64,000 nucleotides of DNA, taken from positions 480,001-544,000 of the forward strand of contig CAXXOU010000004.1 of NCBI GenBank assembly GCA_963677495.2, given 5' to 3'. The notes under the pieces are model-generated. The model did no database searches, was not told the DNA's origin, and saw nothing but the letters and a program-made list of their open reading frames with translations. The translations under genes were made by a program, and so were the position numbers. The stretch is from Candidatus Cloacimonadales bacterium. Lineage in GTDB: Bacteria > Cloacimonadota > Cloacimonadia > Cloacimonadales > JAFGVF01. Shown here piece by piece: positions 958 to 61,771 of the stretch; position 1 is the stretch's first letter, and every line of letters starts with the position of its first letter.

Positions 958-1073
958 CTATCCATCAACGCGCTGTGCACGCACTGTGATCCCACTGTGA
1001 AGGCACTGCCAACCCACTGTTTCACTGGGTTCACAGTGCGTGTACAGTGGGATGACTGTATTTTGGTGGATAG
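958..1073. repeat. 11-bp-period CACTG array followed by inverted copies
   Basis: c(a/g)ctg at 971, 982, 993, 1004, 1015; inverted acagtg units at 1032, 1043; closed by ctatccatcaa/ttggtggatag; close copy at 43962-44051. Confidence 0.9.
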
Positions 1074-7326: not shown

Positions 7327-7489
7327 TATCTTTTTTCATTTAAAGCTCTTTATAATCTGTGGGGGAAGAGAGAGAAGCTGATAAAAACAGGTGTTTAGCT
7401 CTTAAAAATATATTTACATTTCTTATGCCATATTAGTTTTATATATCGGATTTATACGCTCTTGCTTGCAGATTTATTCGCAATCAATT

Positions 7490-7572
7490 CCTACTGGACT
7501 CTTACTAGACCCTTGCTACTCTCTTACTACTCACTTACTCAAAGCACTAAGTTAGTCACAAGTTGTGGATAA
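7490..7572. repeat. 11-bp-period CTTACT array next to a DnaA-box-like 9-mer
   Basis: cctact/cttact/cttgct at 7490, 7501, 7512, 7523, 7534; TGTGGATAA at 7564-7572. Confidence 0.75.
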
Positions 7573-8030: not shown

Positions 8031-8188
8031 ACTCCCTTTTATCTCAGCAGTAATTAGTGCTTTCAACAAAACTCTAACTTATTAACAAATTGTTTACTTC
8101 TTGGTAATTAACCCAAGGATTACCCAAGTGTTTCTCAAGGGTTACCCAAGAGTCTCTCAAGGATTACTGCTGTGAGATGAGGGGGAGT
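8031..8188. repeat. terminal-IR element containing an 11-bp-period C(C/T)CAAG array
   Basis: actcccttttatctcagcagtaat ... attactgctgtgagatgagggggagt; c(c/t)caag at 8112, 8123, 8134, 8145, 8156. Confidence 0.8.
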
Positions 8189-8190
8189 TG

Positions 8191-8281
8191 ATAGCCTACA
8201 GCGAGTAGCCTACAGTCTATAGCCTACAGCTTATAGCCTATAGCCTATAGCCTACAGCTTATAGCCTATAGCCTATAGTTT
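8191..8281 (+). repeat. tandem 7-mer array (ATAGCCT consensus, about 13 units)
   Basis: atagcct acagcga gtagcct acagtct atagcct acagctt atagcct... Confidence 0.92.
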
Positions 8282-8349
8282 TAAAGTCTGTAGGTTTCAC
8301 TAAATAATTATCTTATTGACATTTAGATGATTGCTATCAGTATATGATT

Positions 8350-8709
8350 ATGGAAAGGAAATGTATTATTAGTGATAAATCATTAGCGTTCGCTGTTAGG
8401 ATTGTAAATTTAAGTAAATACTTAAGAGATAAGTGTCATGAAAGAACCTTATCCGTTCAAATCCTTAGATCCGGTACATCAATTGGTGCGAATATTGAAG
8501 AAGCAAATGGAGCTCAATCAGATAAAGACTTTATCGCTAAAATGAGCATTGCCTATAAAGAATGCAGAGAAACAAAGTACTGGTTAACTTTACTCCACAA
8601 AACAGACTATCTTAATGAAGCTCAATATGAATCACTCATGAAAGACAATCTAGAACTACTCAAAATCATTATCGCAATTATCAAAACTAAAAAGCAAAAT
8701 ATGAAATAA
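8350..8709 (+). CDS. four helix bundle protein (IVP/TIGR02436-like), copy 1
   Basis: KSLAFAVRIV..QILRSGTSIGANIEEA..DFIAKMSIAYKECRETKYWL; start set to match copy 2 (ORF track 8344). Confidence 0.93.
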   Translation: MERKCIISDKSLAFAVRIVNLSKYLRDKCHERTLSVQILRSGTSIGANIEEANGAQSDKDFIAKMSIAYKECRETKYWLTLLHKTDYLNEAQYESLMKDNLELLKIIIAIIKTKKQNMK

Positions 8710-8787
8710 GCAATAGCTTATAGTCTGTAGGTTTTTACTAAATAATTATCTTATTGACATTTAGATGATTGCTATCAGTATATAATT

Positions 8788-9144
8788 ATGGAAAGGGAAT
8801 GTATTATTAGTGATAAATCATTAGCGTTCGCTGTTAGGATTGTAAATCTAAGTAAATACTTAAGAGATAAGTGTCATGAAAGAACCTTATCTGTTCAAAT
8901 CCTTAGATCCGGTACATCGATTGGTGCGAACATTGAAGAAGCGAATGGGGCTCAATCAGATAAAGACTTTATCGCTAAAATGAGCATTGCCTATAAAGAA
9001 TGCAGAGAAACAAAGTATTGGTTAACTTTACTTCACAAAACAGATTATCTCAATGAAGCTCAATATGAATCACTCATGAAAGACAATTTAGAACTACTCA
9101 AAATCATTATCGCAATTATCAAAACTAAAAAGAAGAAGATGTAA
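8788..9144 (+). CDS. four helix bundle protein, copy 2 (tandem duplicate, 438-bp unit)
   Basis: identical to copy 1 except K4E and the C-terminal tail. Confidence 0.93.
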   Translation: MERECIISDKSLAFAVRIVNLSKYLRDKCHERTLSVQILRSGTSIGANIEEANGAQSDKDFIAKMSIAYKECRETKYWLTLLHKTDYLNEAQYESLMKDNLELLKIIIAIIKTKKKKM

Positions 9145-9145
9145 A

Positions 9146-9205
9146 AAGCTATAGGCTGTAGGCTATTCGCTATAGGCTCTCTTTCAGCTATAGGCTTTTA
9201 GTTAT
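9146..9205 (-). repeat. 7-mer array, reverse complement of the 8191-8281 array
   Basis: aagctat aggctgt aggctat tcgctat aggctct ... agctat aggcttt. Confidence 0.85.
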
Positions 9206-9416
9206 CTTCAACTTAAGGAAAAAGGATCCCAACAAAGTTAATCCTGCTTGGAAAGGAATAAGTCTAAAATTAAAATCTTGACACACAAAAAATACGTCTT
9301 AATAATGTATGTATGAATTAGTTGAGTCCGTGCCTTCATTGAAGAGTAATGCTCTCACAGAATGCAGTTTCAACTTTACCAACAACAACCATTTAACCAA
9401 AACTGGAGGAAGTATT

Positions 9417-11084: not shown

Positions 11085-11104
11085 CTTCTAGTTTTAGAAA
11101 CATG

Positions 11105-11137
11105 AGAAGGTTGTGAGAACAACCTTCTTTTCTTTTT
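11105..11137 (+). terminator. rho-independent terminator
   Basis: agaaggttgt-gaga-acaaccttct followed by a T-rich tract. Confidence 0.8.
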
Positions 11138-11138
11138 C

Positions 11139-11227
11139 TAATCCTATATGGATTACGTAACAATAGTCATAGGTTTCAATCTATGAGAAATGAATCTCCC
11201 AATCAATAATCGACCCTACATGGGTCG
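11139..11227. repeat. REP-like triple-hairpin module (copy of 7755-7840)
   Basis: taatcc..ggatta / cataggtttcaatctatg / cgaccctacatgggtcg. Confidence 0.8.
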
Positions 11228-11256
11228 CACTAAATCGTAGCCTATAGCCCAAAAAA

Positions 11257-11405
11257 TGCTTCCCAGAACCACCAGATTCATCTGGTGGCTAGACTAAAAC
11301 CAAAGAAACCCAACCCCACCCACATTCCGAAACGAAATGTGGGTGGGGAAGATAGTTCGGAAGATGCTACTGCCCCTACTTGAAAGTAGGGGTTTCGGGG
11401 AAGCA
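11257..11405. repeat. three-hairpin element closed by tgcttccc/gggaagca
   Basis: ccaccagattcatctggtgg; ccccacccacatt..aatgtgggtgggg; cccctacttgaaagtagggg. Confidence 0.75.
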
Positions 11406-11472
11406 AATCTCAATTATCGCTCTATTCCCATGCTTTTATCATGACTAATAACCACATAAATCTAAGGAGACT

Positions 11473-11545
11473 CTTGCATAACCCTTGCATAAATCCTGCA
11501 TAACTATGCAAGAGAGTTGTAAGATTCTTGTATGTTGGTTGAAGG
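11473..11545. repeat. 11-bp-period TGCATA array with inverted copies
   Basis: (t/c)tgcata at 11474, 11485, 11496; tgcaag/tgtaag/tgtatg/tgaagg at 11507, 11518, 11529, 11540. Confidence 0.7.
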
Positions 11546-11709
11546 GTTTGTGCGCTTGTTGTTCGGGGGTGATTCGAGTGAGAAAAGGGACAAGGGAGTA
11601 TCTTTTTAGCTAATGTTCTAACACTCTTGATTGGGTAGGAATAAGTTCATTCTTGACAACTGAATGTTAATATATATATTTAAAGCATAAAATATTACAA
11701 GGGATCATT

Positions 11710-13259
11710 ATGGGTAAAACATTGGTATTTTTATTTCTGTTTTTGGTAACTGCTTCTTTTGCTGAAATGAATCAACTAAGAATTGAAGGTAAAGCAAAAT
11801 TTCAAGATGGAATAATGATATCCAAGGATATTGTGGACAAGAATATGGAGCAAGCAGCTCTTATTGTGTTTCTGACTGATCTTGATGTTGACATAGTTTT
11901 TCGCCCATCCAATGGATTAGTACGCCCAGTTCTAGATAGAACACCTGGAAGATATGAGGTCTTTGTCTCTCCAGGTGAACGCTACATAACTGTTAATGCT
12001 ACAAAATATCAAGAATTCGAAGTTGTTCTATCGACTTATGGAATTCGTAGGTTAAGGAGTGGAGAAGTCTATGAGCTAAAAATCACATCAAAAGCAAAAG
12101 AAAACAACATAGCAATCAATATTTTTTCTGACCAAGAAGATGCGAGTGTTTTTCTTGATAATACTTATGTAGGCTTTATTAAAAATGGATTGTTACAAGT
12201 AGAAAATATCTTTACTGGTAAGCATCTACTTAAAATAAAGAAACCTGGCTTTAAACCATATAATGATGATATTTATGTAAGTTTAGAGAGCAATAGCTTC
12301 ACAGCAACTTTATTTGCTGCTGAACTAGATGCCGTTGATTTTCGATTTACTTCATACCCGAGTGGAGCAGAAATATATATTGATAACAAGTTGCAAGTTG
12401 ACTCAAAAACTAGCTGTGTTATTCCACTATATCCAGACAAGTATGAGATAACTCTTAAGCTTGATGAGTATATTGAACACCACACAGAAATAACGGTATC
12501 TCAGAAAGAAACGAAAATCCTGCACTATGATTTTCTGAAAAATGATATTTATAATAATTATGATAAAAATTTGCTTGATTTACTTTATCTAATAAAAGAC
12601 AATGGCTCCATAACTCAATTCAATAGTGGATTCTTGCTTGCTTCAAATCCCTTTAATAAGAGAAGCCGTAGAGGTGGATCTGTTTTTTTTAACACGCTTT
12701 ATACTTCTGCAGGTCTACAATATCACTTCCCTATACTTGCGAAAGGTTCTGTCATTGTACCAATAGATTCTTACAAGATAACTAAATCTTATTATGCTGG
12801 AGCAAGTCTAATCGGAGATATGATAATTGGGCAAGATAGTGCAATTATTGATTTACTATCTTTGAATTGTGGTCTAATTCTTTCTTCGAATAGCTTACGA
12901 CATAGGCTAATTTTAGATGTAGATGCCTTTGGGAAGATGATAGGATACCTTAACAATAAGTTTAAGTTGGATTCAGGTGTTTCAATAGTAGCTGTTGATG
13001 AAGAATCTAACGATACGGAATCTTTGCCTCTTGCATGGGTACCATTTCATTTGTCTGCTCGTTATGAAAACATTATTTATAAGTCTATAGGATTATCTGT
13101 TATAGCTGGTGCTTTTATTATAACTCCTCCTGATGTTAATTTGGGTTTATGGAAGATGACATCGATAACTGGTTACCAAATACAAGTGGAGAACAAAAAC
13201 CTGACATTTCAGTACTTGATTCGGTGATACCATACTTTGGAGTAGGTATCAGATTTTGA
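11710..13259 (+). CDS. PEGA domain-containing exported protein; frameshift near 13140-13150, true C-terminus probably ...PYFGVGIRF ending 13259
   Basis: signal peptide; two PEGA repeats (SDQEDASVFLDN..GKHLLKIKKPGF; TSYPSGAEIYID); ORF track stops at 13227 but another frame gives a beta-signal-like end. Confidence 0.8.
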
Positions 13260-13301
13260 CAGCGATTGTAATCTCGATTGGAAAAAAATTGTGTCCACGT
13301 T

Positions 13302-13600
13302 TTCTTAAGAACCAAATGCAACGAGAAAGTATTATCAAATCAAATCCTTAGATCCGGTACATCAATTGGTGCGAATATTGAAGAAGCAAATGGAGCTCAG
13401 TCTGATAAGGACTTTGTATCAAAATTGGAGCATTGCCTATAAAGAATGCCGTGAAAACGCTTTATTGGTTAACTCTCCTACATGAAACTGATTACATAGA
13501 TGACAACCAGTACAATTCTATGAGTCAAGATTGCACTGAGCTACTCAAGATAATAATCGTTAATATAAAGACAAAGAAGAAGAATATGGCAACATCTTAG
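13302..13600 (+). pseudogene. four helix bundle protein, 5'-truncated and frameshifted third copy
   Basis: FLRTKCNEKVLSNQILRSGTSIGANIEEANGAQSDKDFVSKL /+1/ SIAYKECRE /+1/ TLYWLTLLHETDY...KTKKKNMATS*; degenerate 7-mers follow at about 13620-13725. Confidence 0.85.
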
Positions 13601-13774
13601 TAATCTACAATTAATAATCAATAGTCTATAGTCATTTGCTGCCAGCTACTAAACAATAGATCATAAACTCTTAACTCTTATCTATAAACTGAAGATTATG
13701 GACTATCGACTATTAACTATAGCAATCAGCTATTTTCTCTTGACACTATCAAACCCTCTAAAACTGTTTAAGCT

Positions 13775-14941
13775 ATGGAAATAACAGTCAAAAAATTCGG
13801 TGGGACATCGGTTGCCAGCATAGAGAAGATAAAACGGATTGCGGAGAACCTTGCGGATGCTAAGCGTCGGGGGGAGAACATTGTGACCGTTGTGTCGGCT
13901 ATGGGGAAGACGACTGATAACCTTACCAGACTTGCATATAAAGTGACTGGTAACCCCGGGAAACGTGAGATGGATATGCTTTTGACAGCAGGGGAGAGGA
14001 TAAGTATGTCCCTGCTCTCTATCGCACTTCAGGACCTTGGGGTTGAGTCAATCTCATTTACCGGCTCACAGAGCGGGATAATCACTAACTGTAATCACGG
14101 TAATGCCCGGATTCTGGATGTGAAGGCTTTCAGAATCAGAGAGGAACTTGAAAAAGGTAAACTTGTGATTGTTGCCGGGTTCCAGGGAGTTAGCGGACAG
14201 AAAGAGGTTACGACCCTCGGAAGAGGTGGTTCTGATACAACAGCAGTGGCTTTAGCTGCATATCTTGGAGCAAAGCGTTGTGAGATCTATACAGATGTTG
14301 ACGGAATCTATTCAACTGATCCACGCTATAACGACAATGCCAACAGATTAGAGCAGATTGACTATGACAGTTGCATTGCCCTTGCAGCCCGTGGAGCACA
14401 GGTGATACACCCGCGAGCAGTTGAATTTGCAAGTATTTACGATATTAAAGTTGAAGTGAAATCGTCCTTCACATTTGCCGAAGGAACGATGATAGGAGAT
14501 ATAGAAGAGATGGAAGAACGCAGAATAACAGCAATAACATCAAAAGAGAAGCTTGTGGCAGTTACACTTGATGAGAATTGTGACTTTGGAAAAGTAATCG
14601 AAAGCATCACTTTTGGTCTGTTTGCTTATGAGATTGATAAAGGCAAGCTTGTTCTGTTCATTGAAGATAAATGCAAGGATGAACTGGTTGATGTTCTTAA
14701 TGAACTTGAATGTCAACCGTGCTTAATGCAGGACAAACTGAGCTGTCTGACAGCTGTGGGAGCAGGAATCCACTCGAATCTGAAGCTTGTGAAAGAACTG
14801 ATTGATTTCTTCAAAGCCAAAGATATTGACATTACTTATATGAACACACCGATAAATGGAATCTCCTTTTACTTGGAAAACATAGAAACAACAGAATTAG
14901 TAACTGAAATACATAATAGATTTATAGAAATTAAGGATTAA
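13775..14941 (+). CDS. lysC: aspartate kinase
   Basis: KFGGTSV, VVSAMG, TLGRGGSDTTA, IYTDVDG. Confidence 0.95.
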   Translation: MEITVKKFGGTSVASIEKIKRIAENLADAKRRGENIVTVVSAMGKTTDNLTRLAYKVTGNPGKREMDMLLTAGERISMSLLSIALQDLGVESISFTGSQSGIITNCNHGNARILDVKAFRIREELEKGKLVIVAGFQGVSGQKEVTTLGRGGSDTTAVALAAYLGAKRCEIYTDVDGIYSTDPRYNDNANRLEQIDYDSCIALAARGAQVIHPRAVEFASIYDIKVEVKSSFTFAEGTMIGDIEEMEERRITAITSKEKLVAVTLDENCDFGKVIESITFGLFAYEIDKGKLVLFIEDKCKDELVDVLNELECQPCLMQDKLSCLTAVGAGIHSNLKLVKELIDFFKAKDIDITYMNTPINGISFYLENIETTELVTEIHNRFIEIKD

Positions 14942-14944
14942 TAG

Positions 14945-16963
14945 ATGGGAAAATATTTAGTAACAAGTGCTTTGCCGTATGCGAACGGTAAACTTCATAT
15001 TGGGCATGTTGCCGGTGCTTATTTACCGGCTGATATATTTGTGAGATACAGAAGATTGCATGAAGAGGATGTAATCTATATTTGTGGAACTGATGAGCAT
15101 GGTGCACCAATCTCTATTGCAGCCGAGAAAGAGGGTTTGACCCCACAGGATATCGTTGATCGTTATCATAAGAGCATTAAAGATAGCTTTGACGGACTTA
15201 ACATAGACTTCGATAACTTCTCAGGAACTGCAAGAAAACCACATCATGGTCTTGCCCAACAGTTCTTCACTGAGCTCTTGGAAAATGGTTACATTACAAC
15301 AAAGCATGGAAAGCAGTTCTTTGATGAGAAAGAGAACAGATTCCTGCCTGATAGATATATAGAGGGTATATGCCCTCATTGTAAAGCTGAAGGTGCTCGT
15401 GGAGACCAATGCGATGCATGTGGTAAGCTTATTGACGCAGAAACCTTGATTAATCCTGTAAGTAAGATTTCAGGCTCTACACCTGTACTTAAAGAGACCT
15501 TCCACTGGTACCTTGACCTGCCTAAGTTTAATGAGAAACTGCAAACATGGCTCGGAAGTAAGGATTACTGGAAAGAGAATGTTGTGAACTTCATTATGAG
15601 TTGGTTGAAAGAGGGCCTTATCGAAAGAGCTATCACCAGAGACATTAATTGGGGTGTCCCGGTTCCTGTTGAAGAAGCAATAAACAAAGTTCTTTACGTA
15701 TGGTTTGACGCTCCAATCGGTTACATTTCATCTACCAAAGAGTGGGCTGCGCGTATCGGTGAACCTGAAAGATGGAAAGATTACTGGCTTGATCAGGAAA
15801 CTAAGATGATTCACTTTATCGGAAAAGATAATATTCCGTTCCATACGATTATCTGGCCTGCACTCTTAATGGGTCAGAATGAAGGTTATGTCTTGCCTTA
15901 CGATGTTCCTGCTAATGAATACCTTACACTTGAGGGTGATAAGATCTCTACAAGCCGTAATTGGGCTATCTGGGTAGAGGATTTCCTTAAGCACTTTGAT
16001 GGTGAGTATCTGAGATATGTCTTAGCTGCCAATGCACCTGAGAGTAAAGATGCAGATTTCAACTGGAAGGAGTTCCAGGGTAAGATAAACAGTGAACTGA
16101 ACAACGTATTCGGTAACCTTGTGAACCGTGTGTTCACATTTACAAAGAAACGCTTTGAAGGTGTTATTGCAAAACCTGATAATCTTAGTGATAGTGCTGT
16201 AAATGCACTTTTAGAAGTTGATGCACTTATCGCAGAAGTTGATAAAGCTTATGCAAACTATCAGGTACGAAGAGCTGTTAAAACAATTATGGACATTGCG
16301 CGTGTCGGTAATAAGTTCTTTGATGAAACCCAGCCTTGGAAGACTGTGAAAGAGACTCCTGAGCTTACAAAAGAGACTCTCTATGTTTGTGGTGAGATTA
16401 TCAGAAAGGTATCTGTTATCTTCTACCCTGTGATTCCAAAGCACATTGAACGCTTGAGAACTATGATGAATCTTGAACCAAAACCTGTTTGGAACAATAT
16501 TAATAAAGAACAAACGATTGAACTTGGAGAGATTACAGCACTGTTCAGTAAAGTTGAAGACAAGCAGGTTGAAGAGCAGTTAGCAATATTAGAAGCAAAT
16601 TCAAAAGCGAACCAGAAGAAAGAGGTTGTACCTTTCAAAGATGAGGTAGAGTTTGATGACTTCATGAAGTTAGACTTCAGAGTTGTGAAGATTATCTCTG
16701 CTGAGAAGGTTAAGAAAGCTAATAAGCTTCTTAAGGTGGAAGTTGAAGATGGCACAGGTATCAGAACAGTTGTTGCCGGTGTTGCCAAGTTCTACAAGCC
16801 GGAAGATATCGTTGGTAAGAAAGTTATCATGCTTGTAAATCTAAAACCAAGAAAGCTGAGAGGAATCGAGTCACAGGGTATGATTTTAGCATGCTCAGAC
16901 GATGAGAACCTTTCATTCCTTTCTCCTGAAAAAGACTTTGATCCGGGGACAATAGTATCATAA
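14945..16963 (+). CDS. metG: methionine--tRNA ligase with C-terminal tRNA-binding domain
   Basis: ALPYANGKLHIGH, CGTDEHG, YVWFDAPIGY, KISTS, C-terminal OB fold (NLKPRKLRGIESQGM). Confidence 0.98.
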   Translation: MGKYLVTSALPYANGKLHIGHVAGAYLPADIFVRYRRLHEEDVIYICGTDEHGAPISIAAEKEGLTPQDIVDRYHKSIKDSFDGLNIDFDNFSGTARKPHHGLAQQFFTELLENGYITTKHGKQFFDEKENRFLPDRYIEGICPHCKAEGARGDQCDACGKLIDAETLINPVSKISGSTPVLKETFHWYLDLPKFNEKLQTWLGSKDYWKENVVNFIMSWLKEGLIERAITRDINWGVPVPVEEAINKVLYVWFDAPIGYISSTKEWAARIGEPERWKDYWLDQETKMIHFIGKDNIPFHTIIWPALLMGQNEGYVLPYDVPANEYLTLEGDKISTSRNWAIWVEDFLKHFDGEYLRYVLAANAPESKDADFNWKEFQGKINSELNNVFGNLVNRVFTFTKKRFEGVIAKPDNLSDSAVNALLEVDALIAEVDKAYANYQVRRAVKTIMDIARVGNKFFDETQPWKTVKETPELTKETLYVCGEIIRKVSVIFYPVIPKHIERLRTMMNLEPKPVWNNINKEQTIELGEITALFSKVEDKQVEEQLAILEANSKANQKKEVVPFKDEVEFDDFMKLDFRVVKIISAEKVKKANKLLKVEVEDGTGIRTVVAGVAKFYKPEDIVGKKVIMLVNLKPRKLRGIESQGMILACSDDENLSFLSPEKDFDPGTIVS

Positions 16964-18369
16964 AAAGAATTATATCCTTAGCCCTCTTGCTATGTGCATT
17001 AGCATCACTCTTCTCATTTGAGATAGATGGGGAAGAGCTATATGTGCATGTATTGATTGCCTCCGGTGATTCGTTGATGCTCGATTCTGTGACCTTTGAT
17101 CTAGTAGGTAAAGAAGTGGAATCATTATCTACTCCGGTAAAAGTCACCATTGATACGACTTACGCTGACATTAAGTATCTTACAAAGGAAAGACAGCAGT
17201 ATGCTGATCGTTGGATTGAGCATAGGTTGTTCTTAAAAGATATGCATTTATCAGAGGTTGACGAGTGGTATTATAGGCTGAATAATCTGGAAGTTATGAT
17301 GCATAAGAAATCGGGTGGTGGAGAGCTAATTGAAAGAGAGATTCACTATGGCAGGTTCTTGCTGAATAGTAATGGGGAAGAGAGATATACTACTTCTAAT
17401 ATAACAAAATTCGATGCAGTTGCATTGACAATAGATGGTTTTGAGGGTACCTATTCCGGTACCTTCAGTTTACTTGCACATGAAGGCAAGATTGGGATTG
17501 TACAAAAAGTCCCATTTGAGGAATATGTGATTGGTGTTGTCGCTTCTGAGATAGGTGATTTTGCACCTGATGAAGCACTGAAAGCACAGGCTATTGCTGC
17601 CAGAACCAAGACAATACGAACACTTATGCATCCCAAAGTGATTACTCTTTACTTTGATTTCTGTAACACAACTACAACTCAAGTTTACAGAGGAACTGAT
17701 AAGGTAAGAGCTAATATCAGAGAAGCAGTAGAAGCCACAAAAAGTGAAGTTCTCACATACAATGATACTATTATTGATGCACTCTTTAGTAGCAACTGTG
17801 GGGGAGTGACAGAATCAAACAACAATGTGTGGAACGGTGATCCTATCCCTTACCTGCAAAGTGTTGTTGATATGAAAGCTGCCGGAAAGTATAACCTTAG
17901 AAGTGAATCAGGTGTTAAGAACTGGATAGATTCAAAGACCACACCAAAGACAAAGCAGAAGCTTGCCAGTTGGCAAAGGAAGTATTTCCATTGGGTTAGG
18001 CATGTCAGAGTTGAAGATGTGAAAGCTAAGACCGGATTAGATAGAGTTAAGAATATTAAAGTTCTTAAAAGAGGTGATTCCGGTAGAATCTTACAGTTAG
18101 AGATTAGTGGCAATGAGAAGATTGTCCTCAAAAACCAAAGTGAGATAAGGGCTACATTCGGTGGATTACCAAGCTCCATGTGTTACTTTGAAAGAACCAA
18201 AAGCGGATTCAAAGTAATCGGAAGAGGATACGGTCACGGAGTTGGTATGTGCCAATCGGGTGCAATAGTGAAAGCATTTCAAGGTTGGGATTACAAGAAA
18301 ATACTCATGCATTTTTACCAAAATGCAAAGATAGATACTATAAAGATTTTGGATATTTATAAGAAATAG
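16960..18369 (+). CDS. SpoIID/LytB domain protein (lytic transglycosylase-like); start probably ATA at 16960 (ORF track 16987)
   Basis: EEYVIGVVASE..EALKAQAIAART, QVYRG, FSSNCGG, GYGHGVGMCQ.GA; in-frame extension IKRIISLALLLCALASLFS forms a signal peptide. Confidence 0.9.
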   Translation: MKRIISLALLLCALASLFSFEIDGEELYVHVLIASGDSLMLDSVTFDLVGKEVESLSTPVKVTIDTTYADIKYLTKERQQYADRWIEHRLFLKDMHLSEVDEWYYRLNNLEVMMHKKSGGGELIEREIHYGRFLLNSNGEERYTTSNITKFDAVALTIDGFEGTYSGTFSLLAHEGKIGIVQKVPFEEYVIGVVASEIGDFAPDEALKAQAIAARTKTIRTLMHPKVITLYFDFCNTTTTQVYRGTDKVRANIREAVEATKSEVLTYNDTIIDALFSSNCGGVTESNNNVWNGDPIPYLQSVVDMKAAGKYNLRSESGVKNWIDSKTTPKTKQKLASWQRKYFHWVRHVRVEDVKAKTGLDRVKNIKVLKRGDSGRILQLEISGNEKIVLKNQSEIRATFGGLPSSMCYFERTKSGFKVIGRGYGHGVGMCQSGAIVKAFQGWDYKKILMHFYQNAKIDTIKILDIYKK

Positions 18370-18406
18370 AACTTCTATAGTTTCTTTCATATAAGTGGCA
18401 TACTCG

Positions 18407-18489
18407 ACCACGGGTTGACCACGGGTAAACCACGGGTTAACCACGGCTCCCGCCGTTTAGGCGTGGTTTACCCGTGGTTCATCCGAGGT
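18407..18489. repeat. 11-bp-period ACCACGG array with inverted copies
   Basis: accacgg at 18407, 18418, 18429, 18440; gcgtggt/ccgtggt/ccgaggt at 18461, 18472, 18483. Confidence 0.92.
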
Positions 18490-18650
18490 AAAATATGTCT
18501 TTGGTGGCAGACTGAGCATAAAGAATTAATGATTATCTTTGAACAATCTTTCCGGTAAAGATTTAGGAGAGATACAAATAATTATTGACTATGATATAAT
18601 ATTGTAGATAAGTTACATAAATAAATATTGAAGGAAGGAGATAAGGCACG

Positions 18651-19631
18651 ATGATTAATATGACAACCAAATATATGGGGTTAACACTTAAGAATCCAAT
18701 AGTAATTGCTTCAAGTGGATTAACCAATAACCTTGCATCTTTAAAAGAATTAGAAAAGAACAATGCAGGGGCAGTTGTCTTAAAATCCTTGTTTGAGGAA
18801 CAGATCCGTATGCAGGTTGAATCTGCACTTAAAGATAGCATTAATCAGTATCCGGGTGGAGAGGATTATCTCCGTTATTATGAAGAAAGAAATGTAGTTG
18901 ATAACTACTTAAGACTTATAAAAGATGCGAAGGCTAATCTTACTATTCCTGTGATTGCAAGTTTAAACTGCACAACAGGTGGCGAATGGACTAAGTTTGC
19001 TAAAGAGATTGAGAATGCAGGTGCTGATGCAATTGAAGTTAATATCTTCAGATTGCCTTTCGATCTTCAAGATAACAAAGCTGTTAATGAAGCAACTTAT
19101 GAAAGTATCATTAAAGATATTAAAGCAAATGTGAATATCCCTGTTGCTGCCAAGATAGGTAAGTTCTTTACTAACCCTGCAATTTTCATCCAGAAGCTTG
19201 CTTTCAGTGGTGCTGATGGTATCGTTTTATTCAATAGATTCTATGGTGTTGATATTGATTTAGATAATGAGAAAGTTACAACAGGTAATCATTACAGTAC
19301 TGCAAATGAGTTCTCTGATGCGATGAGATGGACAGCTTTCTTAGCTGATAGAATAGATGCTGATATCTGTGCAAGTACAGGCATTCACACTTGGGAAGAG
19401 GCTATGAAGATACTCCTTGCCGGTGCTCCAGCTTTTGAGATTGCTTCAACTCTCTACATCAATGGTATTGAGAGGATAAATGAGATTCTTGCAGGAATGA
19501 TTAAATGGATGGAAGCTCATAACTATACTAGTATTGAAAGCTTAGTTGGTAAACTGAAACATTCAGGAGATAAGAACAGTGAATTGTACGAAAGAGTACA
19601 GTTTATGTTATACCAATCAAAGCAAGACTAA
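18651..19631 (+). CDS. dihydroorotate dehydrogenase-like protein
   Basis: YMGLTLKNPIVIASS, GAVVLKSLFEEQI, GIVLFNRF, ASTGIH. Confidence 0.9.
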   Translation: MINMTTKYMGLTLKNPIVIASSGLTNNLASLKELEKNNAGAVVLKSLFEEQIRMQVESALKDSINQYPGGEDYLRYYEERNVVDNYLRLIKDAKANLTIPVIASLNCTTGGEWTKFAKEIENAGADAIEVNIFRLPFDLQDNKAVNEATYESIIKDIKANVNIPVAAKIGKFFTNPAIFIQKLAFSGADGIVLFNRFYGVDIDLDNEKVTTGNHYSTANEFSDAMRWTAFLADRIDADICASTGIHTWEEAMKILLAGAPAFEIASTLYINGIERINEILAGMIKWMEAHNYTSIESLVGKLKHSGDKNSELYERVQFMLYQSKQD

Positions 19632-19642
19632 ACATACATTTT

Positions 19643-19667
19643 AAAGGGCTCATGTAGCCCTTTTTTT
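19643..19667 (+). terminator. rho-independent terminator
   Basis: aaagggct-catgt-agcccttt followed by Ts. Confidence 0.75.
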
Positions 19668-19687
19668 GTTCCTATTTAGGAGGTTTC

Positions 19688-22132
19688 GTGAAAAGGCTAT
19701 TACTTTCTATAGTTGTTTTAAGTATTGGATTGCTCTCAGCAGTAAATATCTTAGTTAATATTCCGGGTGATAACAAAGCTGACTATGTTAATGCAGGTCG
19801 TGACATCGCTTGTTTCAAACCGGATGGCTCTATTGACATTGTTATCGATGAAACTGAGTTAACAGATTTCAAAGCGCAATATCCGCAGATGTCTGTAGTA
19901 ACAACAGATGAAGAACTAAGAAACAACTTTAGAAAAAAGACACGTGACCTTCCAGGGTACAGAGACTACGGAATGCTAACGCAGGAACTCTATAACCTTC
20001 AACTTGCACATGCCAATATTTGCATGCTTACTTCAATCGGTGAAAGCTGGGGGAAGATTCAGTTTGATCTGGGAAACTTTGATTACTATGACTACCAACA
20101 TGACCTTTATGCAATTAAAGTAAGTGATAACCCCGGTATTGAGGAAGATGAACCGGTAATTTACTTTGTAGGAGAGCATCATGCAAGAGAACCAATCTCC
20201 TTAGAAGTTGTTATGAATTTGCTCAATCATCTACTTGAAAACTACTATACTGATCCGCAGATTCAGGATTATGTTGATAATTATCAGATTTGGTTTATTC
20301 CACTCTTGAATCCTGATGGGCATAAGATCGTTACTGATGAAGGGGATATGTGGTGGCGTAAGAATATTAGAGACCATAATTATAATAATGAAGTTGATTT
20401 TCCTAGCTCATATGGCAACACATTTGATGGGGTAGACCTTAATAGAAACTATGGGTGGCACTGGGGAAACCATAATGCACCGGATGATATGAATGATGCT
20501 ACCTATCATGGAACCGGGCCTTTCTCTGAGCCTGAAACCCAAGCTTTTAGAGACTTCTTAGAAGAACATAAACCAGTAGCGGGACTCAGTTATCACTCCT
20601 ACGGTAATTATGTTCTTTTCCCATTTGGATATGGTTGGAATGCTGAGACAGCTGATCGCGAAGTAATGGTAAATCTTGCTGATGAAATGGCTCAAAGAAT
20701 TCACCGAGTTAACGGATTACCTTATCAATCATTTGTTGAGTGGCAACTCTATCCATGTATGGGTGGAACTGATGATTATGCATATGGTATGCACAGAACT
20801 ATTGCATTTACAATAGAGTTAGCAGATACCTTTATCCCTGATGCTTCACTTGTGCAGGGCATCTGTGATGAAAACCTCAATGGACAGTTGCACTTTCTTG
20901 ATAGATTCGAAAAATCAATCCTTAAAGGACATGTGACAGATAGCGTTTCAGGAGAACCAATTGGCGCAACTATCTTTATTGATGGTATTGATAATTTGGG
21001 ATCAGGGCAGACTGACTATATGTGCAACCCTCAGTGGGGTAGTTATTATCGAACTCTTCAACCCGGTGATTATACATTCGAAGTTTCAGCAAATGGGTAT
21101 ATTACACAGAGAGATATTCCTTTTACAATTACTGACAGCACAGAAACTGTTATTGATATTCAGCTCGAACTTCATGAAAACTCAACTCTGACAATAGAGG
21201 TGGTAGATGACAACAACGAGCCAATGCCTGAAACTGCAATTCAACTTGTTTCTTTAGTTACAGAGACCTACACTACTGCTGAAAACGGAACTGTTACAAT
21301 CCTTGATGTTCCTGTTGGAATGTACAATGTTAGGATAGATTGTCCGGGATATGGTTTGATTGATAAAATGCTTGAAGTAGGGGCTGGGGATACATTCTGG
21401 CACGTTAATTTATATCCTCATAGTTTGATATTTGACTTTGAGATAGACAGTAATGGATGGAACTGTTCAGGAGCTTGGGGCACAACAAATGATAACAGTT
21501 TAAATGGTGTCCAATCTCTTTCTAGTAAATATCCCGGATATTCTATGAGTACTGGTAGTTATGCAAAACTAATCCAACCATTAGATAACTCAGAAGGTGA
21601 TGTTAGTATTGAATTTTTCCTGACAAGTGATTATCAGCATGGAGATAATAACTCCTATTTTCAAATATCCGAAGATCAAACAACTTGGATTACGTTAGAA
21701 AGCTTTAGAGAGAATAGCGACTGGACAAAGTATTCATATGATTTAAGTCAGTATAATTGGGAAACTATGTATATTCGTTTCTTCCAGTATATGGAAACGG
21801 GAACATCGGGTGGTGTATATGTGGATGATTTTGCTATTTACCAGAATCAGGTAACAGTGCCAAATGATGAGAATAATCAACAGATACCTGTTGTGAAATC
21901 TTTAGTTGCATACCCAAATCCTTTCTCAAATGAACTAATCATTGAGACAAAGGGTTTATCGGATGAAAAAGTCCAAATATATAATATAAAGGGGCAACTT
22001 GTTAACGAGATCGAATCTTCAAAGGGTAAAGCCGTTTGGAATACTAAACTGGATAATGGACAAGCAGCAGGTAATGGAATCTACTTCATAAAGTGTGGGA
22101 ATATTAAACAGAAAACGTTACTTTTAAAGTAG
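19688..22132 (+). CDS. secreted M14 zinc carboxypeptidase with C-terminal sorting domain
   Basis: HHARE, NPDG, WRKN, GVDLNRNY, FSEPET, SYHSY; C-terminal AYPNPF..IYNIKGQLV..GIYF. Confidence 0.92.
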   Translation: MKRLLLSIVVLSIGLLSAVNILVNIPGDNKADYVNAGRDIACFKPDGSIDIVIDETELTDFKAQYPQMSVVTTDEELRNNFRKKTRDLPGYRDYGMLTQELYNLQLAHANICMLTSIGESWGKIQFDLGNFDYYDYQHDLYAIKVSDNPGIEEDEPVIYFVGEHHAREPISLEVVMNLLNHLLENYYTDPQIQDYVDNYQIWFIPLLNPDGHKIVTDEGDMWWRKNIRDHNYNNEVDFPSSYGNTFDGVDLNRNYGWHWGNHNAPDDMNDATYHGTGPFSEPETQAFRDFLEEHKPVAGLSYHSYGNYVLFPFGYGWNAETADREVMVNLADEMAQRIHRVNGLPYQSFVEWQLYPCMGGTDDYAYGMHRTIAFTIELADTFIPDASLVQGICDENLNGQLHFLDRFEKSILKGHVTDSVSGEPIGATIFIDGIDNLGSGQTDYMCNPQWGSYYRTLQPGDYTFEVSANGYITQRDIPFTITDSTETVIDIQLELHENSTLTIEVVDDNNEPMPETAIQLVSLVTETYTTAENGTVTILDVPVGMYNVRIDCPGYGLIDKMLEVGAGDTFWHVNLYPHSLIFDFEIDSNGWNCSGAWGTTNDNSLNGVQSLSSKYPGYSMSTGSYAKLIQPLDNSEGDVSIEFFLTSDYQHGDNNSYFQISEDQTTWITLESFRENSDWTKYSYDLSQYNWETMYIRFFQYMETGTSGGVYVDDFAIYQNQVTVPNDENNQQIPVVKSLVAYPNPFSNELIIETKGLSDEKVQIYNIKGQLVNEIESSKGKAVWNTKLDNGQAAGNGIYFIKCGNIKQKTLLLK

Positions 22133-22140
22133 GAGGAAGC

Positions 22141-22911
22141 ATGGAAACTAAGAAATATCAGTTGTTCTACTTCTCGGGTACAGGTAACACTTTACTCTTA
22201 GTTGAGAAAGCTGTTGAGATGCTAAAAAATAATAACGCAGAAGTCATTGTAGAACGTATTGAAGATAACCCGGTAGTTGATCCGAATACTTCAATAATAT
22301 TTGCATTCCCGATAGCATGTTTCTCAACATATCCGATAGTGTGGAAGTTTATCGAAAACTTACCTCAATCTAAGATAGCTACAAAAGTGAATGTAATGTA
22401 TGATATGGCAGGTAGATCATTTAACTTTGCCAGTTTACTACATAAGACATTTAGGAAGAAGGGGTATGCACCACAATCGCTAGGTATAATAATTATGCCC
22501 AGTAACATAACCAAAGAGGAATCAACTGAAGATAAGCATAAAACACTGTTTGATAAAGCTTTTGGAGATGTAGAAACTTTCGTAAACAATGTGAAGACAG
22601 GTCACAAGAATTGGAAGCAGAAGGGATTGGTTACCGGGCTTTATAACCGTATGGTTCAAAATATGAATTGGTTTAAGACTATGAAGTCATGGCAACCGAC
22701 ACTGGATGAAAGCAAATGTACTAAATGTGGTATTTGTGCAGAGCTATGTCCCACAAAAAGTATTGAGATGAATGAGTATCCTATTCACAAAGATACATGT
22801 CAGATTTGTCTTAGATGTATAGGTGTGTGCCCTATGAAAGCACTCAATCTTGGAAAGACTAAGAATATTCCTTATTGTGCAGTTCAACCTGAGAAATTTA
22901 GAAAACTATAA
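22141..22911 (+). CDS. EFR1-family flavodoxin-ferredoxin fusion
   Basis: YFSGTGNT; CTKCGICAELCP and CQICLRCIGVCP. Confidence 0.92.
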   Translation: METKKYQLFYFSGTGNTLLLVEKAVEMLKNNNAEVIVERIEDNPVVDPNTSIIFAFPIACFSTYPIVWKFIENLPQSKIATKVNVMYDMAGRSFNFASLLHKTFRKKGYAPQSLGIIIMPSNITKEESTEDKHKTLFDKAFGDVETFVNNVKTGHKNWKQKGLVTGLYNRMVQNMNWFKTMKSWQPTLDESKCTKCGICAELCPTKSIEMNEYPIHKDTCQICLRCIGVCPMKALNLGKTKNIPYCAVQPEKFRKL

Positions 22912-22937
22912 TTACCATGTTACCAAAATAAACATTT

Positions 22938-22959
22938 AGCCCCTGTGGACGCAGGGGCT
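22938..22959. terminator. hairpin between convergent genes (likely terminator)
   Basis: agcccctg-tggacg-caggggct. Confidence 0.6.
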
Positions 22960-23018
22960 TTAAGAGTTTTGCATAACTCATCAGTCTCGGCTGAGTGTTA
23001 ACACCCCGGAGAGACGTT

Positions 23019-23780
23019 TTACTCAATCTCAATCCCAACAGGGCAATGATCTGAGCCCATCACATCTTGCAGAATAAAGGCATTCTTTATTTCCGGAAGG
23101 AACTCTTCATTCACGAAGAAGTAATCAATTCTCCAGCCTGTATTTCTTTCACGAGCTTTGAATCTGTATGACCACCATGAATACTGCGCTTCTCTTTCAT
23201 CAAAATGCCTAAATGTATCAACAAAGCCATGCTCAACAAGCTTATCCAGCCATGCTCTTTCGATTGGTAGGAAACCTGATGTTTGCTCATTAGCTTTAGG
23301 TCTTGCAAGGTCAATAGGTTTATGAGCAGTATTATAGTCACCACATACAACAATGTTCTTCCCATTGTTCTTATACTCAAGCATAACTTCTAGAAGCCTG
23401 TCATAGAACTTTAGTTTATATGCAAGTCTATCCTCATTCATCTGTCCATTCGGGAAGTAGATATTGAAGAGAGTAAACTTCTCAAACTCAGTTGCAATAA
23501 TTCTGCCTTCAGTTTCAAACTCAGGTGCATCAACTTTTGTAGTATTACTTTTTACAGGTAGATCAGTAAACGTTACTACGCCTGAATATCCTTTCTTCTC
23601 TGCATAATCCCAGTATGAGTTTTCAAACGGTAACTGCTCAACTTCCTTTGGGATTTGACTCTCTTGCAGCTTTGTCTCTTGAAGACAGAGTATATCAGGT
23701 TTATGTGTATTTATTATATCTATGAAATCTTTCTTTACTATGGCTCTTAAACCATTCACATTCCAGGACCAGATAATCAT
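23019..23780 (-). CDS. xth: exodeoxyribonuclease III
   Basis: SWNVNGLRA, LQETK, GYSGV, GDYNTAH, GWRIDY, GSDHCP. Confidence 0.97.
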   Translation of the reverse strand: MIIWSWNVNGLRAIVKKDFIDIINTHKPDILCLQETKLQESQIPKEVEQLPFENSYWDYAEKKGYSGVVTFTDLPVKSNTTKVDAPEFETEGRIIATEFEKFTLFNIYFPNGQMNEDRLAYKLKFYDRLLEVMLEYKNNGKNIVVCGDYNTAHKPIDLARPKANEQTSGFLPIERAWLDKLVEHGFVDTFRHFDEREAQYSWWSYRFKARERNTGWRIDYFFVNEEFLPEIKNAFILQDVMGSDHCPVGIEIE

Positions 23781-23782
23781 GG

Positions 23783-24448
23783 TTACTCCTTACTATATTT
23801 TGTTTTCACTCCAACTCTGTGACAATAATCATAAATTGGGCAAGTAGAACATTTAGGGTTTATAGGACGGCAATGGTTTTGACCAAATGCTACTAAATAT
23901 GAGTTTATATTTAACCAGTACTTTTCAGGAAGTTTTGCTCGCAATGCCATCTCAGTATCAAATGGTGTCTTTGTCTCAACATAGCCAAATCTGTTACTGA
24001 TTCTATGCACATGAATATCTACACAAATAGCGGGTTTCTTGAAGGCAATCGCTCTGACAAGATTTGCTGTTTTACGTCCAACTCCAGGCAATTGTGTTAA
24101 GTCATCTATCTCATCAGGGATGTTACCCTTGAATTTCTCATCCAATACATCTGGTAGTTTTTGTAAGTATTTAGCTTTTTGTCGAAAAAACCCGACGGGA
24201 AACACAAGCTGTTCCAACTCCTCTGCAGAGAACTTGCGTAAGTCTTTATATGTATCAACTACTTTAAACAGTTTCTTTACTACTTCGGTAGTAGTTTCAT
24301 CTTTTGTTCTAGCGCTTAAAATTGTAGCGACAAGAATCTTAAAAGGGTCATGGGTCTGTGCTTCAACCAGGTCAACAACCGGGGTCTGATATGTTACGAA
24401 GTATTCACCTAACACTTCATAAATTGCATCAATATTAACGTCCTTCAT
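23783..24448 (-). CDS. nth: endonuclease III
   Basis: LPGVGRKTA HhH, VDIHVHR, C-X6-C-X2-C-X5-C cluster. Confidence 0.95.
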   Translation of the reverse strand: MKDVNIDAIYEVLGEYFVTYQTPVVDLVEAQTHDPFKILVATILSARTKDETTTEVVKKLFKVVDTYKDLRKFSAEELEQLVFPVGFFRQKAKYLQKLPDVLDEKFKGNIPDEIDDLTQLPGVGRKTANLVRAIAFKKPAICVDIHVHRISNRFGYVETKTPFDTEMALRAKLPEKYWLNINSYLVAFGQNHCRPINPKCSTCPIYDYCHRVGVKTKYSKE

Positions 24449-24512
24449 ACTGCTCCAATTTAGTTTGATTTAATATTAACATATTCGATATTGATGTCAT
24501 GTCGAGAAATAA

Positions 24513-24704
24513 TTAATCAAAAATAAAGATTTCCTCTATGGATAACTTAAACACTTTTGCGATATCATATGCAAGTTTAAGCGAAGGATTGTATTTTCCT
24601 TTCTCAAGAAACACTATGGTTTCTCGTCTCACTCCAACGGCTTTGGCTAGTTGGCTTTGAGTGATGTCATCCCTAGCTCTGAGCTCTTTAATCCTTGTTT
24701 TCAT
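24513..24704 (-). CDS. XRE/Cro-family helix-turn-helix regulator
   Basis: [31 protein letters not shown]. Confidence 0.92.
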
Positions 24705-25101
24705 TGTATGTAAACCTTATAATGATATAAGAGATAATGAAAGTCAACACACTTAAAAAGAAACCGATACCCATTAGTGATTCAATTGATTCAATTTTAC
24801 TTCCAAATCTATCCAATTCTATCCAGATAAATAGATTTAGTCCACCTGCTAAAGCATATGCCCTATTCCTAATTTTTAGAGACAGCTCATCATTTTCAGG
24901 TTCACCAGCACGTTTTCTTTTTATCGTTGTGTAAATAATTATAAATAGCAAAACTACAACCGCAAGCACATACGCAAAATCTAACAGACATGAGCTGTTT
25001 AATAAATCAGTTTTTTCAAGCACTTTCAAGATGATTACTACAAATAACTGGTGAATCATTATTCCCATACCAAAATGTAAAAGTGGAACATGTTTCTTCA
25101 T
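24688..25101 (-). CDS. membrane protein (DUF2178-like partner of the XRE regulator)
   Basis: four hydrophobic segments, [21 protein letters not shown]. Confidence 0.7.
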
Positions 25102-25227
25102 TACACCTCCTCATGTTATAAATATATAACACAAAGTTAGAAATAAATAACTATGAGTCAACTTCTTTTTTTATATAAGCACGAGGTTTGTGTACTCTTT
25201 AGCAATTCAGTTACACGCTTTATCCCA

Positions 25228-25356
25228 CTCTTTCAACTCACGGGAGACGGAGGGGATTTCATCGCGAATACAACGGGAATTACTCGAGCAAAGCCCCGAG
25301 AGAGTCCCGAGTGATTCCCGGGAGATTCCCGTGTGAGTCCCGATAATTGAAAGAGG
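25228..25356. repeat. palindromic element: 5+5 CGGGA/TCCCG units at 11-bp period
   Basis: cggga-like at 25241, 25252, 25263, 25274, 25285; (t/c)cccg at 25294, 25305, 25316, 25327, 25338; closed by ctctttcaa/ttgaaagag. Confidence 0.9.
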
Positions 25357-25430
25357 GCATAGGGAGAGCTTGAAGAATGTGAGATTATATTCCGTTGACA
25401 TGAAATTGCAGGTAATAGTAATTAGCGAGT

Positions 25431-28852: not shown

Positions 28853-28951
28853 TTATAATCTTCGGGACTAATAGGGGATCTTAATTGGAATTTGTAGGGA
28901 TTACTCGGGCAAAGTCCCGCGAGATTCGTGCGAAAGTCCCGAGTATTATAA
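28853..28951. repeat. palindromic element related to 25228-25356
   Basis: ttataatcttcgggact...agtcccgagtattataa; shared core ttactcg(a/g)gcaaag(c/t)cccg; near-11-bp spacing of ggga/tcccg. Confidence 0.8.
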
Positions 28952-43747: not shown

Positions 43748-44066
43748 ACAGCGCAATTTGCAACAACTTACGGCATTTCAGGGAGTTTGTCAGCCTGATA
43801 AGGCAACGGACTTCCTTAAAATGCACTCCGAAGTCGCAATTCCCCAAGCTCGCGAACTCACACTGGTGACCGCTTCAGGGTGACATAGACAGTGCAATTT
43901 GCAACAACTTAGCCATATTTACTGCCCCTTTTACTCTCTTTTACTGTACTTTTCATCAACGCACTGTGCTCCCACTGTGTTCGCACTGTGAAGGCACTGC
44001 CAACCCACTGTTTCACTGGGTGCACAGTGCGTGCACAGTGGGAAAACAGTGGGATGACTGCGATTT
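43748..44066. repeat. composite repeat: 23-bp direct repeats, IR half-arms and 11-bp-period CACTG array
   Basis: acag(c/t)gcaatttgcaacaactta at 43748 and 43889; cactg at 43962, 43973, 43984, 43995, 44006; inverted at 44023, 44034, 44045; 43835-44066 aligns with 843-1064. Confidence 0.88.
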
Positions 44067-48997: not shown

Positions 48998-49261
48998 TTT
49001 CGACATGCAACATCGAAGTCGTTTGAAGAATGTCTGATGGAAATAATGTATCCTCTCCTACCTCACACGGGGACCACTCGGGGATCTCCCCCGCCTAGCC
49101 CCGAGAGGACCGGGGGAGGAGCGGATGCAAAGCAGGGGAAAATCTCAGACTTCTGCCATACATCTAGCAGAGTTCGACTGAATAGCTGAATAGCTGTCTT
49201 TAGAGAAAAGTCCTAAATATATTGTGCTTTCATTGACTCGATAGCAACACAGCCAATACGT

Positions 49262-61272: not shown

Positions 61273-61411
61273 GAATCAAACTGCTATATTTCACTATTGC
61301 TAAAATTCCATTCAGTCATTGTGAATCAGCTTTTCCTACTTTATCAATAGCTTCTCTTTATCTTGTCGCATCAAGACATTCTTTGCACCGTTAAGTAAAT
61401 TATGCACACGA

Positions 61412-61473
61412 TGTGGATAACTTTAGGGGTTCATAGGGAGGGTCTAGGGAGGCTAAAGGGAGGGATAAGCGAG
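61412..61473. repeat. DnaA-box-like 9-mer followed by an 11-bp-period AGGGAG array
   Basis: TGTGGATAA at 61412-61420; agggag at 61435, 61446, 61457, agcgag at 61468. Confidence 0.7.
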
Positions 61474-61771
61474 ATTCAAGGTTCTTGATGAGATTAGATA
61501 AAGAGAAGATTGAGACCAGATGCTAGTTTAAAACATAGTAATAACACATTGGAAAGATTAAGGACATTGATTTTATGATAACAACAGTGGTCATAGAAGC
61601 ATTAACTGAAGGAATTTAGTCATATGATTGTCATAATACGTATGGCAGTAGTTGAATATTAAAAGAAAGAAGTTTTTTAGATTACAAGAATCAAACTGTT
61701 GGAAAAGAAAAGTATTGACAAAAATGACAAAAAATTAAAGAATAGACTTGCGTCAAATGTAGGAGTAAGAA

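Follow-up and report, generated by a model that had tools for sequence, protein, structure and literature searches.

Dispersed intergenic arrays with an 11-bp period in a Cloacimonadota genome and a linked family of 150-aa proteins

The DNA analyzed here is a window of 64,000 nucleotides from a Candidatus Cloacimonadales bacterium (G000:C4:480001-544000; the source genome, G000, has 3.41 Mb in four contigs). At the index locus, four direct 11-bp units with the core ACCACGG (18406..18446, plus strand; 38 copies of the family in the genome) are followed by an inverted arm of three CGTGGT-type units, also at 11 bp (18455..18489, plus strand). The outer inverted repeats of this copy (18407) are the array arms only, and the module is able to fold back on itself (DNA minimum free energy -31.6 kcal/mol, z -6.6). 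It lies in a 215-bp stretch (18358..18572) that is missing at the orthologous site of the sister species G001, with a SpoIID-domain gene on one side and a dihydroorotate-dehydrogenase-domain gene on the other; the sequence that flanks the module in this stretch is unique. Both arms are present in short-read contigs, which argues against an assembly artefact but, as these contigs come from the same sample, gives no independent support. Four sequencing runs of that one sample contained no joint skipping the index insertion in the region 7001-26500, and a promoter and terminator scan of the locus gave no signal above shuffles.

Further modules of this kind were found in the window, all on the plus strand. 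The CACTG family has one copy with direct and inverted arms at 958..1073 (outer inverted repeat 958-968 / 1063-1073) and a second at 43956..44057. A copy of the CTTACT (GTAAG) family (7476..7572; 12 BLAST copies) is followed by one TGTGGATAA box at 7564-7572, and a CCAAG copy (8034..8183) has its array at 8111-8161 and an outer inverted repeat at 8034-8054 / 8163-8183. The TGCATA array (11470..11555) is single in G000; in G001, this repeat stands upstream of a paralogue of the protein family described below and has 3 copies in 960 kb. The remaining modules are a CCCGAG copy (25228..25355) and a degenerate CCCGAG-type copy below the threshold of our scan (28853..28951), both with outer inverted repeats, a CGGGG/CCGGG-type copy (49047..49129; 7 BLAST copies), and an AGGGAG copy (61351..61508; 35-36 copies) that has an array at 61434-61473, an outer inverted repeat, and an inverted box pair, TTATGCACA-n3-TGTGGATAA, at 61400-61420.

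The preliminary description of this DNA had reported intergenic arrays with a strict 11-bp period and had proposed a comparison of lag-11 autocorrelation between intergenic and coding DNA. Among the 22 intergenic regions of the window, seven contain a lag-11 array, against a mean of 0.015 (maximum 1) in 200 dinucleotide shuffles, and none contains an array at lags 10, 12, or 13. Genome-wide, 5-mer self-matches in intergenic DNA amount to 9.9 per 1000 positions at lag 11, 5.9 at lag 22, and 3.6 at lag 33, compared with 1.5-3.6 at lags not divisible by 11 and with 1.36 at lag 11 in coding DNA. A segment scan of G000 at a score of at least 10 found 393 lag-11 segments, 342 of them intergenic, versus 14 segments at lag 10; merging of these lag-11 segments left 292 loci, including a few false positives of low complexity. 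Successive ACCACG cores are 11 (91 times), 22 (26 times), or 33 bp (five times) apart, with no other spacing found up to 35 bp. The arrays are therefore real, both in the window and across the genome. Eight of the ten loci named at the outset passed the lag-11 scan; the other two, 28863 and 49068, scored below 10 and have 7 BLAST-detectable genome copies each. A strict 11, with no alternation between 10 and 11, fits a spacing set by a protein as well as simple tandem duplication, and the sequence would be compatible with both.

Clustering of the 292 loci gave about 15 dispersed families. A family module spans approximately 100-250 bp and is built from an array of 3-5 units, in many cases a second array in inverted orientation, and short inverted repeats on the outside; in several families all arrays are direct. 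By BLAST, G000 contains 65 copies of CACTG, 38 of ACCACGG, 37-38 of CCAAG, 35-36 of AGGGAG, 24 of CACGAGAG, 14-24 of CCCGAG (depending on the query), 16-26 of TAACGGG, and 2-8 of several others. Identity to the query copy is typically 80-96%, and similarity among ACCACGG copies stops at the module edge. The earlier view that each locus has a different core was not borne out, as only the array at 11474 is single and the families of the nine other named loci have 7 to 65 copies each. Spacers, which had been described as variable, do differ from unit to unit inside an array, yet the copies of a family have largely the same spacers. The terminal inverted repeats said to close the arrays were found at most window copies; they measure approximately 10-26 bp, differ from family to family, and were not detected at 11474. 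Over six families, novel substitutions affect 5.8% of core and 10.3% of spacer positions, alignment noise included. This contrast is strongest in CACTG and CACGAGAG, and AGGGAG does not have it (3.8% vs. 4.3%).

For comparison, we sampled 960 kb of G001, which belongs to the same genus (median ortholog identity 84%). The SpoIID-domain and dihydroorotate-dehydrogenase-domain genes are 70 bp apart in G001 versus 281 bp in G000. Only nine of the 292 G000 loci had colinear flanks in this sample, and two of these are low-complexity false positives; at all seven remaining loci the array is missing in G001, with a much shorter gap in six. In the reverse direction, one of 39 G001 arrays had colinear G000 flanks, and the G000 site is empty. 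The presence/absence comparison that had been suggested for orthologous loci thus revealed empty sites throughout, with the direction, gain or loss, not fixed by this single pair of genomes. The ACCACGG module occupies at least 29 loci in G000, has one 29-bp partial match in G001, and was not found in 29 other genomes searched. Direct repeats flanking the modules of seven families showed no excess in a scan able to detect only duplications longer than about 5 bp, and the empty orthologous sites are too diverged for target-site duplications to be read. The preliminary description had also considered the arrays as ends of an unrecognised mobile element. Their dispersal as lineage-specific repeats and the empty orthologous sites support the idea of a mobile element, but the arrays are whole elements and not the ends of a larger one.

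Gene order is strongly shuffled between G000 and G001, with colinear blocks of approximately 0.5-11 kb, and more than 90% of the spacers of at least 500 bp lie at breakpoints. Arrays as rearrangement breakpoints were considered and rejected: after matching for spacer length (at least 500 bp), the counts are 50/54 vs. 55/59, with some gene pairs counted twice, and there is no excess.

The short outer inverted repeats, the dozens of copies, and the empty sites would also be expected of MITEs or leftover insertion-sequence ends mobilised by a DDE or serine transposase encoded in the same genome. A precedent comes from the IS607 family, in which, according to the accessible part of the source, four helically phased direct motifs at the ends nucleate cooperative binding by the serine transposase TnpA, motifs differ between elements, and no target duplication is made (PMC6188088). 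In our case, the outer repeats differ by family, the array stands on one side only of the linked gene, gene-less copies far outnumber genes, and the linked protein has no match to a transposase family, the serine-recombinase and MerR-type domains of TnpA-like proteins included (Pfam and NCBIfam). G000 also contains six near-identical IS3-like copies (G000:C2:142625, C2:235206, C2:359505 (L236), C3:93495, C4:221018, and C4:1237849) with HTH and rve ORFs and TG...CA ends. All six lie in the same orientation beside the same end of a CCAAG array, at distances of 3-37 bp (by eye 3, 12, 13, 14, 15, and 37). However, these copies have their own ends, 3-bp duplications in four of six cases, and variable distances, which indicates that they inserted next to pre-existing arrays. 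IS3-family elements that target REP sequences are known, but those insert into the repeat itself, as far as the available portion of the report describes (PMC1525189). With this one IS3-like element as the insertion sequence examined, we regard an origin of the arrays as MITEs or insertion-sequence remnants as most improbable.

The preliminary description had asked whether a gene is recurrently linked to the arrays, and one was found. Clustering of the ORFs near arrays yielded a 22-member paralogue family of approximately 150 aa in G000. A lag-11 array lies within 1.5 kb upstream of 15 of the 22 full-length paralogues and within 800 bp downstream of none. On a quick tree of the paralogues, upstream arrays are present at 14 of the 15 members outside one array-poor subclade and at one of the seven inside it. 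The partner of ACCACGG is G000:C4:453465-453917 (minus strand), with an ACCACGG copy 529 bp upstream. Ten distinct families are represented among the 12 nearest upstream arrays that entered the count (P = 0.012, with 388 other genes as the reference); this count misses three paralogues with arrays, owing to the coding filter or the score threshold. In other genomes, 26 of 59 homologues have an array in the 600 bp upstream, and none of the 59 has one downstream. A second set of 28 further loci had five upstream arrays and no downstream one; all five are at the seven GK.DG-type proteins and none at the 21 others, a grouping made post hoc.

Several observations suggest that gene and array travel together. 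The same repeat is found at sister proteins between G000 and G001 (CCAAG, CCTTGG, GTAAG, and CACTG), G000 and G002 (AGGGAG), G001 and G003 (CAACGGG), and G013 and G025 (ACGGTA and GATGC), although such common repeats may come from linkage alone. For the CCTTGG partner, the alignment with its G001 ortholog is an isolated block of 491 bp, which indicates that array and gene stayed together while their neighbours changed. In a recent 822-bp duplication (96.8% identical), which runs from a repeat-module edge through the leader and the gene to 5 bp past the stop codon, repeat and gene were copied as one unit. Among the neighbours of the 22 paralogues, which were Pfam-scanned in part, there are only four homologous pairs, none of them recurrent.

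The copy number of a family often follows its partner gene. The CCCGTTG pattern has 26 matches in G001 (which has the partner), five in G003, and one in G000 (without the partner); ACGGTA has 67 in G013, 17 in G025, and none in three other genomes. Random 80-kb samples contained three lag-11 arrays in G013 (12 homologues) and eight in G014 (nine homologues), most of them with units that match those upstream of the homologues of these genomes, and none in G024 (no homologue) or G004. There are exceptions. G027 has 24-32 homologues, yet a single AT-rich lag-11 segment in 80 kb; TAACGGG (16-26 copies) and CATATAG (7-8 copies) lack a cognate partner in G000; CCAAG in G001 has gene and array but no further copies in 960 kb; and CCCGAG has five copies in the same 960 kb, with no partner found among the G001 homologues examined (11 full-length and one fragment, of 13 matches).

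The orphan families among these exceptions bear on the view that the arrays are functionless minisatellites collecting in long spacers, in which case the gene link would reflect co-inherited neighbouring DNA and the period would have been frozen by accident from one ancestral 11-mer. This view also draws on matched comparisons: among spacers of at least 400 bp, an array lies upstream of 8/16 paralogues vs. 226/501 other genes (P = 0.80), and among those of at least 200 bp, of 12/22 vs. 273/814 (P = 0.065). Upstream presence is not enriched because arrays are so common in long spacers. Heptamer and REP-like repeats also collect in paralogue leaders. Moreover, cores of different families align on a C-H-C scaffold, which suggests shared descent; its information is 8.06, compared with a maximum of 6.51 over 30 shuffles, and the 8.06 is inflated because the units taken from the genus include related ones. 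However, such repeats would not be expected to lie upstream only (26/59 vs. 0/59; 5/28 vs. 0/28), to be retained beside the gene while dispersed copies turn over, to have constrained cores, or to keep a period of 11 in four families of the order that have different units. We therefore find passive minisatellites very unlikely and the pairing of gene and array well supported.

Some subclades of the protein family have no 11-bp arrays, namely, the FDSGW subclade in G000 and YSGT-type proteins elsewhere; loci of this sort include L066, L088, and L061-L065, as well as those of many homologues outside G000. The leaders of some array-less G000 paralogues have heptamer runs instead. Paralogue leaders also carry the motif TATA-n1-5-TAGAG(G/A)G (e.g., G000:C4:454043 and 454107), which has 18 matches in intergenic DNA, 10 of them no more than 500 bp upstream of a paralogue, and is possibly a family-specific promoter. 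One paralogue (L238, G000:C4:469533-469769) is broken: only its C-terminal part is left, and a CCGGG-type array stands where the front is missing. This repeat has seven copies, including the one at 49068 of the window. The window ORF at 24688-25101, beside the array at 25241, has no paralogue and was rejected as a partner.

The 150-aa protein family comprises 366 cluster representatives at E ≤ 0.001. It has matches in 80 of 121 Cloacimonadota genomes (1-32 each) and was not found in the other 41, and the Atlas neighbours of one homologue are unnamed clusters of the same phylum. Searches of Pfam (20 and 138 members), PHROGs, and NCBIfam gave no meaningful family match. An HMG_box match was obtained for two of 138 homologues at E 0.006, and Y1_Tnp matched none of the 20 or 138 members. 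We take DUF6266 (PF19781) to comprise small multicopy proteins of the FCB group with a similar N-terminal GKxG...R.Y.P pattern; it matched none of the 138 homologues at E ≤ 0.05, and its search of the genome, in which the controls were silent too, found nothing. The predicted model (pLDDT 85) has a three-stranded N-terminal beta-meander, a long helix, and a helical C-terminal part. Residues 1-45 have a median net charge of +5 and are positively charged in 96% of the 138 homologues, and the C-terminal part is acidic. Gly14, Tyr72, Arg33, Lys2, and Leu109 are each kept in more than 90% of the homologues; the alignment of all 138 contains no conserved-His column and no recognisable catalytic motif. 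Foldseek found no match at E ≤ 0.001 in PDB or BFVD, and the best Z from VIA-align was 4.0 with the whole model and 2.9 with residues 1-64 (AP2 domain: Z 2.2, rmsd 7.9), results that establish neither a fold nor fold novelty. Helix matches of the ribbon-helix-helix type are weak (Z 3.0-3.8) and not above unrelated rows; they include TraM (Z 3.8, rmsd 2.5, 49 aligned), CopASO (Z 3.6), and PutA (Z 3.6).

Our preferred reading, for which the chances appear about even, is a partnership similar to that of REPINs and RAYTs: approximately 15 dispersed families, most with their own paralogue, whose product is a predicted reader of double-stranded DNA that would aid their spread. Phased protein-binding arrays would fit both the strict period and the rarer substitutions in cores. 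The protein likely binds the word of its repeat on double-stranded DNA, cooperatively and with one protomer per 11-bp unit, and its basic N-terminal beta-meander would read the core. The copy upstream of the gene may serve as master copy and autoregulatory operator. Protein and core would diverge together, with the period held at 11 by the spacing of protomers. Two-fold symmetry of the bound complex would come from the mirrored arm and outer repeats. The bound array could then be the substrate for copying, and the copies would seed short gene-less modules. Catalysis may be supplied by a host recombinase or by the 150-aa protein itself.

A stronger version, which we hold to be rather doubtful, is a replicator pair in which a protein of unmatched fold reads its own array and itself catalyses or directs the copying, with or without its gene. 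The paralogues would then be orthogonal reader-movers, each for a 5-7-bp word of its own, and the Tyr kept in 99% of the homologues, together with conserved Arg, Asp, and Asn, would be catalytic or substrate-binding.

The proteins could instead be domesticated nucleoid or regulatory factors, with arrays that spread by ordinary recombination and gene conversion and were kept for chromosome organisation or for titration of proteins such as DnaA. Genome-wide, there are 49 distinct inverted pairs of the form TTATCCACA-n3-TGTG(G/C)ATAA, of which 45 lie within 80 bp of AGGGAG, CACGAGAG, or CCTTGG arrays; GTAAG and ATCAAG modules have a single box each. We take these pairs and the TGTGGATAA-type boxes to correspond to the DnaA-box consensus, and such pairs beside arrays could titrate DnaA. 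A role of this kind also agrees with the stronger constraint on cores than on spacers, with the avoidance of genes by arrays, and with the position of one end of the duplicated cassette inside the dispersed repeat, as expected from recombination through the repeat. The differing array positions between sister species, the turnover of families inside one genus, and the presence of the protein in 1 to 32 matches in some genomes and its absence from the 41 others count against it. Strand bias relative to GC skew is inconsistent as well, being nominally significant in two of 12 families, in opposite directions, on a skew that is itself mosaic. A nucleoid role has been proposed for constant-size repeats, as stated in the accessible part of the work by Subirana and Messeguer (PMC8161180). 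On balance, we consider this explanation of the arrays unlikely.

The outer inverted repeats and the strong folding of the index copy (z -6.6) raise the question of whether the modules act as single strands. They would then be ssDNA or RNA hairpins, REPIN-like, moved by resident Y1 transposases or via RNA, with the 150-aa genes as passengers or RNA-binding partners. An A-form helix has 11 bp per turn, and in the stems of two families out of six, G-T (71 and 99) outnumbers A-C (34 and 50, respectively), as strict-pair counts over non-independent copies; counts based on RNAalifold were discarded because they are circular. G000 contains 14 Y1_Tnp matches, including G000:C1:910675, and two of them adjoin paralogues. 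However, 13 of the 14 are flanked by repeated 16-mers (4-43 copies), the commonest of which are other repeats, unrelated to the 11-bp modules; the genome probably also has many ordinary REP-RAYT pairs. REPs and REPINs are marked by a GTAG/CGTC-type tag 5' of a short palindrome, and tags of the GTAG/GGAG/CGTC type are under background at our array ends (51/584 vs. 17.6%, counted from array ends and not from outer stems). Compensatory changes are few (nine vs. 7.3 expected in ACCACGG and seven vs. 5.0 in CACTG) and outnumbered by pair-breaking ones. Several families consist of direct arrays only, and searches with RVT_1 in the genome and with Rfam in the window gave no match. A single-stranded mode of action is thus quite unlikely.

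Returning to the partnership of array and double-strand reader, the closest known system is REPIN-RAYT, in which several dispersed extragenic families each lie beside their own gene, as set out in the available part of that study (Bertels and Rainey, PMC3116915). Both systems have several extragenic families, each with a copy beside a distinct, mostly single-copy gene, an inverted architecture, and an inferred co-evolution of gene and repeat. They differ in that REPINs are doublets of short palindromes, whereas here an 11-bp-period array is found with an upstream copy only, and in that the partner of REPINs is a Y1 HUH transposase. The present system is not a member of REPIN-RAYT because its partner is no Y1 transposase.

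Constant-size tandem repeats of 20-21 and 52 nt have been described in bacteria, and a polymerising DNA-binding protein was proposed for them (Subirana and Messeguer, PMC8161180). As portrayed in the available part of that paper, they resemble our arrays in having several non-coding families that agree in repeat length, differ in sequence, and retain a short conserved word. The arrays differ from them in their period of 11, in being short (3-5 units) and often mirrored, and in the linked candidate partner gene; for the 52-nt repeats, that same part states that there is no evidence for a Cas-like partner protein. No 11-nt class is named in the accessible part of PMC6749651, and families of 11 nt could be listed in the tables of satellite families of PMC6749651 and PMC8161180.

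In type II partition, the ParR protein of R1 needs two 11-bp repeats and ParR families bind their cognate parC only, according to the portion of the source available (PMC9426499). As in ParR-parC, direct repeats here lie upstream of a gene for a small protein, for which DNA binding is predicted; unlike it, there are hundreds of chromosomal copies and no recurring motor gene adjoins the partner. The predicted mode of binding has parallels in both ParR-parC and the IS607 ends. A partition-like role, raised in the preliminary description, gained no support since no gene recurs beside the partner genes. The literature searched, with most subscription papers outside its coverage, contained no description of the 11-bp arrays or of the 150-aa protein, and the system is real, widespread in one phylum, and apparently undescribed in that literature.

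To our knowledge, bacterial dispersed repeats and constant-size satellites mostly have no known protein that propagates or reads them, RAYTs being the main exception. A phylum-restricted family tied clade by clade to its own array makes the period and spread of such repeats testable. If binding is specific, the 150-aa family would be a natural panel of small orthogonal DNA readers; if the replicator-pair reading is true, Cloacimonadota would hold hundreds of natural protein-word pairs and hence a readable recognition code. The repeats also shape G000, with approximately 290 loci, many with inverted DnaA-box pairs, and with CCAAG attracting every IS3-like copy.

Other repeats and gene clusters were noted in the same DNA. 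Lag-7 arrays occur in 59 intergenic cases genome-wide. In the window (8190-9150), two 23S_rRNA_IVP genes (four-helix-bundle; 8344-8709 and 8788-9144) come after runs of the heptamer TAGCCTA. Furthermore, a long run of plus-strand genes occupies 29371-39086 and opens, among the first three ORFs scanned, with genes for a C-C bond lyase (TIM barrel) and MmgE/PrpD.
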